A stretch of 63,491 nt of DNA, filler included, from Collodictyon triciliatum (taxonomy: Eukaryota): the NCBI GenBank assembly GCA_043381765.1. It is 26 parts of 26 records of this genome, joined end to end, with 100 filler letters (N's around TTAATTAATTAA, not from the genome) between each part and the next. Parts side by side here need not be neighbours in the genome. Positions count along the whole stretch, not along the records: positions 19,455 to 21,784 come from JBHJMP010009084.1; positions 21,885 to 25,734 come from JBHJMP010009085.1; 24 more parts are not named here. One strand, written 5' to 3'. Each line of letters begins with the position of its first letter. The first letter of the stretch is position 1. A program made the translations under genes and the position numbers. The notes under the pieces are model-generated. The model did not search any database and was not told the DNA's origin. It was given only the letters and a program-made list of their open reading frames with translations. This document shows, one piece after another, positions 20,112-25,464 of the stretch.

Positions 20112-22748
20112 GTCAAACCTTTTTGTTCTGGCCGCCGTGCGATGGTTTTGTCAATCCGGTTCTACTACTTTTCTTGAAGCCCAGATTATTTTATTACTTT
20201 TATTTCATATTTTTTTTTAATTGATTGGTGGGTTTAGTGGGGCGCGTAATTAAATTTTACACGCGGCTCACTCGCAATAAACAGTTGAACAATCAAAATT
20301 GTCTGTGTCACGATTCTTGGACAATTAATCCAATCCAATTATTCAAGTTCCGGGGTTCATCGCTTCCCGCAACATCTAAATATTTGCCATGTTTACAAAA
20401 CCCGGAATTTTTTTTTTTTTGTGAAAACTATGTCTGAATTCTTACAGTATGAGTATTCATATGGTAATTCAACTGGTAAGTAATATTGACTAGTGGATTT
20501 TTTTTATGGTGGCAGATGCAAGTTAGACTATCAAAATCTTGAGCTGCCTATTGTTTTTATACTGATGTTTTTTTTATTTACGTTTGCGCAAAATTTTACA
20601 CCCAATATTCAAATTGAATTAATGATATTATATTCTCCTAACTTGCTGGAATACTATAAAATCAATTCAAGCATTTCAATTAAATGGGTCACAGATGTTC
20701 TAAAATGGCTCTTGGCTCTTTAAGAACAGAAAATGCTGTCAGACTGTGGCTATATAAACTAAATCGTATGAATCAAGACCTTATCTGATTTTCTCACAGA
20801 GTTAACTAAAAAGGCACTTATTTTAAAAAAAGAAATGAAAAAAATAATAATAAAAAGGCCTCTTAAGTCTAGTTCCGGTTCACTGCAGCCATTTCGTCGA
20901 TTGGAATTACACCTCCCTTGATTTTTATACAATTCCAGTGATGCATTCTCATTTCAAGGATATAGTGTAGAATATTACTTATTTCAGGCGCTTTCATTTT
21001 TCTGTCCTTTCAGAATCATGACATACTTTATTGCAAATGATCATTATAGTTGGATATTGTTGCTAATCAAAAAAAAATAATTTTTTTAATTCTTCCTTTC
21101 AATTTTGTGCAGGATAGTGATGATGCTGGCTTTACTTCTCCAGAGGTTGAATTATCTTCATCTTCTTATTTGAGCAGTTGCTAATGTAGACAAAAAGCAA
21201 AGATATTTTCACTACCAAATTGCACATGATGAGGTTATCGTTTTATAACTGTACTCTAAAATCTGATTGGTGGGGGTGAGAATAAATTAGCCATTCCACC
21301 ACAAATGCACTTCGACTATTTCTAAAGATTGTGGGCATCTATGTCTTGGCAGGAATATGCGACTTAAAGTGTTACCTCATCCACTTTAGATTCACATTCT
21401 GAATGTTATGTACTTCATGCCCACCGACAAGCATTGTAAACTAAGTCTCTATCATTCAAAGCTGACCTCCCTTCACATATGTGGCGCAGTTATACAAACA
21501 TAGAATCAAAAAATCGTGATTTTGATTTTAGCGAGAGTGAATGAATGGTTGTGAAGACAAATATTATACATGAATTTTCAATTTCCCACTTCCCAGGTGT
21601 AGAGGTCTTTACCTCTGGGGTTCTACCTCCTCTTGTGTAGCTAAATTAGATATCTGATAGTCGGCACCTACATTTACAACCCATTTCACGCTCGTTGCTT
21701 TATCGCCACATCGAAATTCACGAGTTAAGCAGATTGTGTCTACTTTGAATCGAATAAAGGGTGGGGGGGGGGGGGGGGGGGGGGNNNNNNNNNNNNNNNN
21801 NNNNNNNNNNNNNNNNNNNNNNNNNNNNTTAATTAATTAANNNNNNNNNNNNNNNNNNNNNNNNNNNNNNNNNNNNNNNNNNNNCCACCAGGAGCTGCTC
21901 ATTTTAATCAGAGAGCTCCTTCCTGAGGATGAAGATCCGATTCAGTACACAGTCGACGAGGTGGATATACCAGACGTGCTATATCAAGCCCCAAGCAGGG
22001 CAAACATGTAACAAAGCGCCCAGTAAAAAAAAAGAAAAAAAGATTAGCACTCGCAACATCAGCGAGCTTGAATCAGATATATATCTGCATCAATCTCTCT
22101 TCATCTCTCAATGCGCTACCGTGATTGGTGGTCATGGTTCTGTAAAAGGTGGAATAAACTCCAGAAGAAAAAAACAGATGTCGACGGATATAACCAATCC
22201 TCACGTAATTTATAGTCTCTGAAGTGGGAAAGGGTCTAGAGCGTATTAGCCGGGCAGCAGTTGGGAATAGTCTTGAGCCTTTAAAAGAAATGGAGTAAAA
22301 GTGGCGCGTAGGTAGGAGTCACCCGATTTCGCCATTGAAAGACAAAGTCGTAGCCCAAAGGACGTAGAGGTGAGTCATAAACCACGTGAAGAGCGGCAGC
22401 TCGCCAATTTTCTCAGTGCGCCTTGGTTCGTGTGCTTCTTTATCCCTTCGAGTTATCCCCAAGTGAAGCCGAAATTGACAAGCCTCCCTGAATCGCGAAC
22501 AAACGAAACTAATACCAGATGGTTCTTTGCCTTTGTCGTTGTCCTCTGGCCAACAGAATTCAATCCCGGCATTGGATCTTTGAAACCGCAGAGGAGGGTC
22601 AGTTGTCGAATCTAATGCCTTGTTATTTTTTTCTTTTATTGAAATTATACAATATACTAGAAGGAGTATACCATCTTTCGGTCGGCAAGCCTGGTTCCCT
22701 AGTATCCAAGGTCTCACCACTTTTTTCACAGAGGTTGTGTAGTGGTGA

Positions 22749-22775
22749 AGGCTGCCATAAAAGACCCGACAGCCT
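22749..22775 (-). ncRNA. Candidate omegaRNA / right-end hairpin of the Fanzor element
   Basis: AGGCTGTCG-GGTCTTTTA-TGGCAGCCT starts 6 nt after the Fanzor stop; the 9-bp stem forms fully (with G-U pairs) only on the minus strand. Confidence 0.4.
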
Positions 22776-22780
22776 GTTTT

Positions 22781-24894
22781 TTAGAGATAAGTGTGCATAT
22801 TTTGAAGGATTAAAAGAACTTTGTTGAGTATATTTTTAGCGCTGTTAAAGTCCCTTGTCAAGAATACAGTTTGTCTGCTTTCTGACCGTTTTCTTTCTTT
22901 ACATATGAGACATCTATACACCTTTTTTAATTTCCTTTCGGTTTCATATATTCCAGTTCTTTTTTGCAGTTACAACAAATCTCGGACGTTCTAAATTCAT
23001 CCACACTCCCAGTTTCAAAACGTTTGGATAGTATTTTTCGTAATCCTCTTCCGATTGTTGACATAAAATGTTTCACCTGAGATTTTCTGCTCCAGTCTCC
23101 ATACGCAAGTACAGCATCCTTGCCAAATGTCTTTTCGATTCGGCCCATAAACAATTCTTCACTTCTTTTTGTATTAACATACGGTCTCCATATCATCTTT
23201 CGAAAAGTTACTTGCCCATAAAATCTGGAAAATTTATCTGGTATCTTGATTTCATAGATACATATTTTCGAAACTTTTCATAATCGGCCGTGCATGAATT
23301 ATGTTTACTCAGTTCTGTCTCTAAATCGATTAAAAATACTCTTGATGTCTCAAACCGCTGATTCTCTTCAAAAGTCATGGCACCAAAAGAAACAACACTT
23401 TGTAAATCTGTTGCCATGTATATCCTGAAGCAATATACTTTACTTCTCGCACAAGAGTATTTTGTCATTTTTAAGAGGTTTACTATCATTTTTTCTTTTG
23501 TGTGCCGTGTAACGTAATTTCTTACACGTCTCATCCACCATGTAAGCCAAATTAAACTTGCCTGCGTCCACTCAAACTTTTTTTTTTGTCGCTAATTAAG
23601 ATAACTGCTCTTCGGAAAGTTCATCCATATAAACATATTTGGGTTTTTGATTTAATTGAAATTCTGAATTTGAAATACTTTTCTTTTGAAAGAATAATGG
23701 CACCGCCAAGCCATCTGTTTGTATCATGTATTTGAAATTGTAGTCTCCTTGGTGAAATATCCTCTTCTTCATTTCAAAGAAATCATCCAATAGTTACTCT
23801 TTGTATCCTGATATAATATTCAGTAATAATGTTTTTCCAGATAATAATAATATATCTACCAAACGTGCAGTATCTATAGTAACATGAAATGGTATATTGG
23901 TAGTTCTTATAGAGATTGGTTGAAACAGTTTGGTTCCAATGTCCTCAAAAATGCGATTCATGTAAATCAGACATGTAATGCACTTATTTGGATTGGCTTT
24001 GGCGTCATATTCGATACCGTTTACAATATCGCTGGGAATGATATGATGCAAGTGCGTTGTAGCCCATTCTTTATATTGTTCCGGTATTAATGCGTCGTAA
24101 GATATCTCCCACAGCATATCCAACCCCTGCTACCCACGCAACCAATCAACCAGTTGGGACGCCCACGTGACCAACTCGCTATCACTGACCTCTTTCCAGT
24201 GCTACCCTCTCCACGGTAGTGTCTTCTCCTACTCGCGTTTGCTCTCTCCCATGCGCTCCCATCCCGCCCCTTTGTATGGCATAACCTCGCTACACTTTGA
24301 ATCGAATAAAGGAAAAAAAAAATATTGTTCCGGTATTCCGAGATTCTTGAAGATGGCTTTTTTAACTTTCGTAACTCTGGCTTTTTAATAGCTTCCGTAA
24401 TATCCTCATCTTTAGGAACTGTTTGATTTATAAAGCGCAGTAACCTCTTTACAAAATGCTCCTTAACGTTATTATGATAAGATGTTAACATTTTCTTCGC
24501 CGAATACAGTTATAGATGAGTCATTCTAACCGAGGGAAAGCGTTCTTCTCGGGATGAAAGGAATAGAAAATCATTGAGATAAAATGTCATCATGGCATCT
24601 CTCATATCTGGTTTTTTTAAACTTGCGGGTCTATCTTGTGAAACTATTCCGACTGTCTTTAAAGCGTACAAAAAACATTTTATCGATTGTTTGGGGTGGT
24701 TGTGATTTGAATATGTAACATCTTGCAAATAGATAAGTGTCGGTAACCAAATTATGACACAATAACACCGTATCGTTGATTTTGTCATAGTCATCCGCAT
24801 TCTTTACAATCAACTTTAGAGATATTTTCACGTTTTGATAGCCTGGTTTTACAGACTTTATATTCTCAAACTCAAGAGGTTTTCTTGTCTTCAT
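22781..24894 (-). pseudogene. Fanzor1 (eukaryotic TnpB/Cas12-like RNA-guided endonuclease), disrupted
   Basis: Collinear motifs: VKISLKLIVKN; LTSYHNNVKEHF; LFQPISIRTTNIPFHVTIDT; FKYMIQTDGLAV; RuvC-I VDAGKFNL; LRYT; LAYGDWS; RuvC-II VDEFRTSEICCNC; RuvC-III TRDFNSAKNI. Several frameshifts and stops plus a LINE-tail insertion. Confidence 0.9.
24089..24321 (+). mobile_element. LINE 3'-tail / SINE-like insertion (233 bp) inside the Fanzor gene
   Basis: 16-bp TSD ATATTGTTCCGGTATT at 24073-24088 and 24322-24337; removing the insert restores KAIFKNLGIPEQYKEWAT. Confidence 0.9.
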
Positions 24895-25464
24895 CTGAAA
24901 GTCTTTGTTTTACTTTTTCCTTTAGAAACCTATCGATTTTTCAATTTTAATAAAACTCTAGTCAATCAGGCAATTTAATTATTAAATAAATAAATAAATA
25001 AATAAATAAAATCAATTCAGTTAAAATTAAGCATCTACCGAGATTCTCAAAATGTGCGCTTTGTAGCAAACAAACACAGTTTTTTTTAATAAGTGATTTG
25101 AGACAAAACGCTGAGAGCCGATCCGGCGAGTCCGAAAGGACGGCCGTATAGCCATTGGGACTGAAAGTCAACACATCGGCCCCAAACAACATGATTACTG
25201 CCGCAAGTGTGGATAGTATGCTTTTTTTTGAAATGCATGTTTGGTGGCAGGTTTGTAGGGTGGGTTCTGTCTGGGCCAAGGCAAGGGCTTGTTGGTAATT
25301 TTTGAATTTTAATGATATTACATAAATAGAAAATAAAACATAAATTGATTACAGGAATTGTATGAGATTATTAAGCATTTTAACCTTATTATGTAGATTA
25401 ATTATACTATTTATCATTCAGGCTCTTTCTTGGGTTCATCAAAGCTCCTGCTTTCGTCAATCCA

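Follow-up and report, generated by a model that had tools for sequence, protein, structure and literature searches.

A relic of a Fanzor1 gene is present in a 63,491-nucleotide stretch of DNA from Collodictyon triciliatum (assembly GCA_043381765.1), which consists of 26 parts from 26 records joined end to end and is here called the window. Among the TnpB/Cas12 RuvC nucleases, Fanzor1 proteins are the branch found in eukaryotes and giant viruses. The relic occupies positions 22781..24894 on the minus strand. It begins with an ATG at 24894-24892 and runs to a TAA at 22783-22781, which is the first stop codon past the RuvC-III motif, and it comprises approximately 621 codons when an insertion is left out of account. 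No further Fanzor copy was found in the window by either tblastn or blastn. Very likely, the locus is a Fanzor1-derived pseudogene that resides within a repeated unit approximately 2.0 kb long.

The best full-length relative is an intact protein of 634 amino acids (P0002). When the insertion is removed and a frame-aware alignment is used, residues 1-588 of this protein correspond to window positions 24894 through 22829, and 241 of the 570 aligned residues (42%) are identical. The last 46 residues of P0002 are not aligned, and the last 54 positions of the profile described below are also unmatched. Thus the TAA at 22781 may be premature or it may be the native stop codon.

The profile is a hidden Markov model (HMM) made from 58 full-length-like proteins (560-760 amino acids) among the 150 best matches to a 116-amino-acid piece of the locus (22927-23277), and it was searched against the complete six-frame set of 2476 stop-to-stop pieces from the window. 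The nine pieces that it matches all belong to the minus strand, lie between 22784 and 24909, and are colinear with positions 16-597 of the 651 profile positions. Their expectation (E) values are 5.6e-12, 0.053, 4.8e-10, 2.2e-23, 1.9e-14, 4.6e-10, 1.8e-5, 2.9e-46 and 6.1e-10, and the best piece outside the locus anywhere in the window has an E value of 1.2. The match at the locus is far above chance.

The 116-amino-acid piece also matches the solved Fanzor1 structures in the PDB, namely PpFz1 (E value of 1e-10), SpuFz1 (3e-7) and GtFz1 (1.6e-3). Among 1.84 billion representative proteins there are 1434 relatives of this piece with E values of 1e-3 or less, 345 at 1e-10 or less and three at 1e-30 or less. 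The best full-length representative is P0002, whose residues 14-607 match SpuFz1 with an E value of 9.2e-37. With a profile constructed from 40 full-length relatives, the E values for the three solved Fanzor1 proteins are 1.6e-98, 2.8e-94 and 2.4e-77. Protein clusters that resemble the window fragment in the Atlas are labelled mostly as Eukaryota (Mucoromycota, Zoopagomycota and Oomycota), followed by Nucleocytoviricota. Additional searches recovered a few more sequences. A word-index search among proteins of near length yielded three fragments of 68-82 amino acids with 70-84% identity, and a scan of metagenome contigs with a window fragment yielded one locus with 39% identity. A word-index search for longer relatives returned 52 candidates, of which none reached an E value of 1e-10, although this constitutes weak evidence.

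A first-pass annotation of the window had stitched together minus-strand frames from the ATG at 24894 to the TAA at 22781 and had proposed a Fanzor1-type gene carrying a series of motifs, all of which were found in the proposed order and places. Its assignment to Fanzor1 is upheld by the significant PDB matches, all of which are to Fanzor1 chains, and by the presence of both the TDG motif and the alternative Glu residue described below. Its suggestion of an undescribed family is not supported, given the 1434 relatives, the look-alike clusters labelled as fungi, oomycetes and Nucleocytoviricota, and the profile matches to solved Fanzor1 proteins at 1e-77 to 1e-98. The locus is an additional member of a known and well-populated Fanzor1 family, and relics of this kind are common.

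Many of the nucleotide-encoded features that characterize Fanzor1 proteins can still be read from the minus strand, and their conservation was counted for each alignment column among the 58 full-length relatives. The first is a TDG motif (23710..23718, read as QTDG), wherein the T, D and G are present in 58, 55 and 57 of the 58 relatives, respectively. A TDG motif in the WED domain is a reported hallmark of Fanzor1 (PMC10711439). Next is the RuvC-I motif, which reads VDAGK (23557..23571) and is immediately preceded by a TGA stop codon (23574-23572). The catalytic Asp codon of this motif (23568-23566) is retained, and the corresponding D, P and G positions are conserved in 58, 58 and 56 of the 58 relatives.

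The next conserved site, GDWS (23089..23100), carries no Glu, as is the case in Fanzors; its G is found in all 58 relatives, D or N in 55 and W in 54. The canonical and alternative positions of the RuvC-II Glu are reported to distinguish TnpB from Fanzor (PMC10711439), and in ordinary TnpB proteins the canonical RuvC-II Glu presumably occupies the GDWS site. The alternative Glu (22998-22996) is located in the sequence DEFRTS (22984..23001) and is present in all 58 relatives. Fanzor signatures include a DPG sequence at RuvC-I and an alternative Glu located six residues before the zinc finger (PMC10711439). In the window copy, the segment DEFRTSEICCNC has six residues separating the alternative Glu from the first zinc-binding Cys, which is the same spacing as in SpuFz1 and P0002.

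The first zinc-finger pair is CCNC (22966..22977), corresponding to C537 and C540 in P0002 numbering, which are present in 46 and 45 of the 58 relatives. The second zinc-finger region reads CLICKER (22892..22912), wherein the third Cys of the finger is kept and the fourth is replaced by Arg. The second pair of the family is formed by C564 and C567 (46 and 47 of 58), and the CLIC portion (22912-22901) includes an extra Cys that is present in only four of the 58 relatives. Thus, three of the four zinc-binding Cys residues are retained by the window copy. Finally, the RuvC-III motif reads RDFNSAKNI (22829..22855), with its Asp at 22852-22850, and the R, D and N of this motif are found in 57, 57 and 54 of the 58 relatives. 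The catalytic D, alternative E and D therefore occur in order in the window copy, as they do in the relatives (58, 58 and 57 of 58). The RuvC triad had initially been described as intact. This description holds for the three acidic residues themselves, but adjacent invariant residues have been lost, such as the Pro of DPG. Similarly, the CxxC feature originally listed is genuine for the CCNC pair, but CLIC is not the second zinc pair of the family, and the fourth position is occupied by Arg.

The reading frame is heavily damaged. There are five frameshifts, located near 24705, 24373, 23409, 23224 and 22928, and five internal stop codons at 24512-24510, 23796-23794, 23598-23596, 23574-23572 and 23442-23440, four of which are TAA and one of which is TGA. 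In addition, a 233-bp retroposon whose 3' end is an A-run (24089..24321, plus strand) is situated in the portion of the gene coding for the REC domain, which is otherwise interrupted by stop codons and one frameshift. This retroposon is either a short interspersed nuclear element (SINE) or the tail of a long one (LINE), and it is flanked by a target-site duplication of 16 bp, the two copies of which (24073..24088 and 24322..24337) are exact direct repeats. Because these repeats are exact, dropping positions 24089-24337 restores the sequence as it was before the insertion. When the insertion is counted there are at least 11 disabling lesions. The window copy is dead, cannot encode a working protein, and is now neutral DNA without function. 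The first-pass annotation had likewise regarded the copy as dead and the 233-bp segment as a retro-insertion, and both judgements are borne out by the five frameshifts, the five stops, the A-tail and the exact duplication.

Further insight into the extent of the unit comes from other sequencing data. There are 20 public runs that share a small part of the sequence words of the window, none of which is listed as RNA, and four of these were examined as contigs. Two of them, X5 and X8, are small runs, perhaps of RNA, representing organisms A and B. At a likeness to the window of at least 85% there are 558 contigs in X5 and 546 in X8, and single positions of the Fanzor locus are covered by 4-25 distinct contigs each. 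Contig depth, which is not equivalent to copy number, changes sharply at both sides of the gene. On the 3' side, the depths in X5 and X8 are zero at 22500-22586, 0.12 and 4.0 at 22587-22673, and 54 and 67 at 22674-22760. Across the gene they are mostly 100-500 (range 75-498). On the 5' side they are 195 and 156 at 24849-24935, 25 and 13 at 24936-25022, and zero at 25023-25100. Positions 24971-25100 are of low complexity and were skipped, and therefore the 5' limit of the unit is inexact.

On the basis of these depths, the repeated unit includes a 5' leader (24895..24970, minus strand) and a 3' tail (22674..22780, minus strand), the latter being the expected place of a guide RNA scaffold and of the right end of an element. 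The unit is about 2.0 kb in length without the later retroposon and consists of the Fanzor frame, this short leader and tail, and little else. Numerous diverged copies of it are present in two or more related organisms, and copies are also found in freshwater metagenomes. The contigs that represent these copies are short, with none exceeding 362 nucleotides among the pieces listed. Some of them exhibit single-base length differences (22922, 23234 and 24357) that are located about 6-16 nucleotides from three of the five frameshift sites, and thus these three lesions are not common to all copies. A freshwater metagenome run (X2) provides a different type of match. Its contigs correspond to the 3' flank at 22517-22667 with one difference and to 22703-22853 with no differences. 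Near identity to this unique flank indicates that the organism or a close relative occurs in the freshwater sample.

The same runs reveal the empty site of the retroposon. X1, X5 and X8 each include a single contig that jumps exactly 249 nucleotides, from 24075 to 24325, and these contigs are copies of the Fanzor unit without the retroposon. The inserted copy is truncated at its 5' end, since contigs from other runs reach further in the 5' direction and have loose ends before 24089. An inverted copy with 93% identity is located at 25467-25698. Besides the inserted retroposon, the window contains seven copies or fragments with 82-100% identity. Comparison of repeats within the window places copies and fragments at 12726-13097, 17393-17923, 21742-21760, 25467-25698 and 52792-52827. 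The depth of the retroposon bins in X5 and X8 reaches 2500-3600, exceeding that of the Fanzor body 10- to 20-fold. Members of this retroposon family are very numerous in both organism A and organism B.

Several results weigh against the conclusion that the locus is a Fanzor1 relic within a mobile unit. Some concern the gene itself. Of four fragments searched against solved structures, a single one matched Fanzor1 significantly. The piece at 23794-24129 had PpFz1 and GtFz1 as its top matches at E values of only 0.54 and 0.64, and the pieces at 23596-23793 and 22781-22969 gave only chance-level matches to PDB sequences with phmmer. No match reached the cut-offs for any of nine fragments with Pfam or any of five with NCBIfam, and the highest score, 22.7 bits for DUF5958 against a cut-off of 23.6, was judged to be due to chance. 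Furthermore, RuvC-I reads DAG, wherein the Pro of DPG has been replaced by Ala, and so the DPG signature of Fanzors is lacking. We attribute DAG to a point change, the copy being dead, and thus the locus is classified as a relic derived from the family and not as a working member. Other results concern the unit, whose limits are set only by the depth of contigs from other runs. The best local score for a terminal inverted repeat at the unit ends was 21, compared with a shuffle mean of 18.1 (standard deviation of 3.0), and 31 of 200 shuffles did equally well. No transposase or viral domain was detected in the flanking open reading frames (ORFs), and the DDE_3 transposase of the viral relatives described below gave a best tblastn E value of 6.2 against the window. 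The 3' region does not have an unusually stable predicted fold (z-score of -0.91, with 39 of 200 shuffles equally stable), has no Rfam match with an E value of 1 or less, and has no block in common with the 3' ends of three viral loci (L001, L003 and L005).

The absence of a detectable transposase or terminal inverted repeat agrees with what had been remarked when the locus was first described. However, some Fanzor loci are reported without detectable ends, such as that of GtFz1, which lacks inverted repeats (PMC10432273). Thus, the missing ends weaken, but do not overturn, the claim that the gene was borne by a transposon. Either the transposase partner and the element ends have been lost, or they were never part of this unit.

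If the ancestor behaved as other members of its family do (PMC10711439, PMC10432273 and PMC10530073), its protein would have bound a guide RNA encoded at the 3' end of the element that carried it. DNA matching the guide would then have been cut beside a short motif through the action of the RuvC Asp, the alternative Glu and the second Asp. Perhaps, as in bacteria (PMC10690162), such cutting aided the persistence of a host transposon. The reported location of the guide RNA gene at the 3' end of Fanzor elements (PMC10711439) is where the 3' tail of the unit lies.

The nearest intact full-length kin of the window copy are viral, and this raises the possibility that the locus is an eroded insertion of an endogenised giant virus and not a stand-alone mobile unit. 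Relatives of P0002 reside on five IMG/VR giant-virus contigs of 57-254 kb, with identities of 88, 80, 80, 80 and 49%, and one of these contigs is named as a giant-virus metagenome-assembled genome. Atlas look-alikes of P0002 are 92-100% Viruses, among which Nucleocytoviricota are the commonest. In four of the viral loci (L001-L004), the Fanzor gene adjoins a gene for a divergent transposase with DDE_3 and helix-turn-helix domains (Pfam E value of 1.3e-13), and the transposases of the different loci share 73% identity. The two genes are located between inverted repeats of 32-33 nucleotides that are 97-100% alike, giving a unit of about 3.3 kb, and these elements are of the Tc1/mariner type. For example, at 4637-7952 of L001, and also in L002-L004, the transposase and the 634-amino-acid Fanzor1 are divergently transcribed and the right repeat begins 16 nucleotides past the Fanzor stop codon. 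An equivalent Tc1/mariner-type arrangement, Fanzor-only variants, and a degraded fragment on a host chromosome that is akin to the virus-borne Fanzor have been reported for an endogenous giant virus of Chlamydomonas (10.1101/2024.09.03.611062), which provides a precedent for a viral source.

Despite these relationships, it is very unlikely that an endogenised virus gave rise to the locus. The viral relative P0002 is only 42% identical to the window copy. The closest relative of all, P0001 (63% over 102 amino acids, on a contig of 767 nucleotides), yielded no relative when compared with viral contigs. A recent viral origin is therefore unsupported. Moreover, the flanking ORFs carry no viral domains, the flanks are host-like in the window in that they include a proline transfer RNA (tRNA) gene, retroposon copies and microsatellites, the repeat signal is limited to about 2 kb, and the gene differs little from its surroundings in guanine-plus-cytosine content (0.34 for the gene).

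It is extremely improbable that the pseudogene derives from TnpB, Fanzor2 or another Cas12-like nuclease in place of Fanzor1. A RuvC and zinc-ribbon core is common to all of these proteins, and the Pfam domain Cas12f1-like_TNB is matched by 20 of 40 full-length relatives. However, the significant PDB matches, both for the window fragment and for P0002, are to Fanzor1 chains only, so that sequence favours Fanzor1 over Fanzor2 and TnpB. For P0002, no TnpB chain reaches an E value of 0.01. The profile of 40 relatives finds LaTranC (4.9e-5) as its next match after the Fanzor1 proteins, followed by Cas12m and Cas12f (0.02-0.1), and is thus more than 70 orders of magnitude better for Fanzor1. In addition, the TDG motif is present and a length of about 620-650 amino acids suits the Fanzor1 relatives.

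The idea that the gene is still functional, with its breaks being introns or reassigned stop codons, has next to no chance of being correct and was rejected as a rescue of the window copy: introns are reported to be common in Fanzor genes (PMC10530073) and all but one of the five internal stops are TAA, but the alignment with P0002 continues across every break without extra intron sequence, and hence introns do not account for the breaks, whereas five frameshifts, one TGA and the 249-bp insertion would persist under any reassignment of stops, ORFs of 485-544 amino acids in the window are open under the standard code, and an invariant Pro and a zinc-binding Cys are gone.

With a Fanzor1 pseudogene as the preferred explanation, the locus can be compared with characterized systems. 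SpuFz1 (8gkh), PpFz1 (9cf0) and GtFz1 (9cer) have the same domain order, TDG motif, RuvC-I Asp, alternative Glu and RuvC-III RD.N..N pattern as the window copy, but the latter is broken in at least 11 places, has DAG in place of DPG, and shares low sequence identity with the solved proteins. SpuFz1 is encoded by a single-ORF locus of about 2.1 kb that occurs as full-length and partial copies (PMC10432273), which is similar to the unit described here. There are 19 full-length examples among 42 such loci reported in S. punctatus (PMC10432273). In contrast, SpuFz1 is accompanied by well-kept inverted repeats (PMC10432273), and none were detected for the window unit.

The nearest intact full-length kin are those of the P0002 cluster, comprising the viral loci L001-L004 together with Fanzor families A-C of the Chlamydomonas virus (10.1101/2024.09.03.611062). 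These differ from the window locus in that the viral elements are about 3.3 kb and carry a DDE_3 transposase and 32-33-nucleotide repeats, neither of which was detected in the window, and their protein is 42% identical. Spodoptera frugiperda ascovirus 1a is reported to harbour a non-autonomous element with Fanzor1 alone, which has clear inverted repeats, target duplications and an abundantly expressed guide RNA (PMC10711439), none of which were detected in the window unit. The more distant TnpB proteins of bacterial IS607 and IS605 elements are ancestral RuvC nucleases that obtain their guide RNA from the right end and cut vacant sites, thereby maintaining the transposon (PMC10690162). Unlike the window Fanzor1, TnpB is shorter, has Glu at the canonical position and is without TDG (PMC10711439).

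One far-reaching extension of these observations is that the unit belongs to a high-copy, Fanzor1-only family that is still active in a freshwater eukaryote lineage uncatalogued for Fanzor1, that moves without recognisable inverted repeats or a transposase of its own, and that has ancestry in common with the mariner-borne Fanzor1 of freshwater giant viruses. We consider this proposal unlikely.

The window has other features besides the Fanzor relic. An uninterrupted ORF of 544 amino acids (47919-49553, plus strand) has a weak match to a tubulin GTPase domain (Pfam Tubulin, 8.5e-13) and a long acidic tail rich in Asp, Glu and Asn, and it resembles a tubulin-like gene that is either divergent or a retrocopy. 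An ORF of 485 amino acids (7550-9007, minus strand) encodes pentapeptide repeats followed by near-identical WD40 repeats. Traces of retroelements include an ORF with LINE-type endonuclease (endonuclease-reverse-transcriptase) domains at 55616-57184 on the plus strand and a Ty3-type gag fragment at 38-442 on the minus strand. Two further regions, 1713-2333 (plus strand) and 51869-52243 (minus strand), resemble each other by eye through peptide stretches in common, have no Pfam match, and are suspected to be fragments of retroelement ORFs.

There are two tRNA genes, one for tRNA-Pro (AGG) at 20040-20111 on the plus strand, which in window coordinates is 2.7 kb from the Fanzor relic, and one for tRNA-Glu (CTC) at 42250-42321 on the minus strand. 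An imperfect tandem array of about 1 kb (15412-16407, minus strand) exhibits HSFI/HSFF repeats in all frames, and many further microsatellites occur throughout the window. Paired runs of 44 N around TTAATTAATTAA, which recur at a spacing of about 2430 nucleotides (for example, at 21785-21884 and 25735-25834), are non-biological masks that cause spurious repeat families.

Fanzor1 proteins are reported from fungi, protists, arthropods, plants and giant viruses (PMC10432273), and 3655 unique Fanzors, which are often multi-copy, have been catalogued (PMC10530073). Multi-copy families with partial copies and the sharing of Fanzors between viruses and hosts are already published, and the locus is therefore minor on its own. 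Its significance is that this organism and its relatives are shown to carry a many-copy Fanzor1 family. If an intact copy exists, it would add a natural Fanzor1 variant to those available for comparison or for editing, as well as a data point on the spread of Fanzor-only units that lack visible ends. If the family were indeed active and akin to the viral elements, it would represent a trace of the traffic of such elements between viruses and their hosts.

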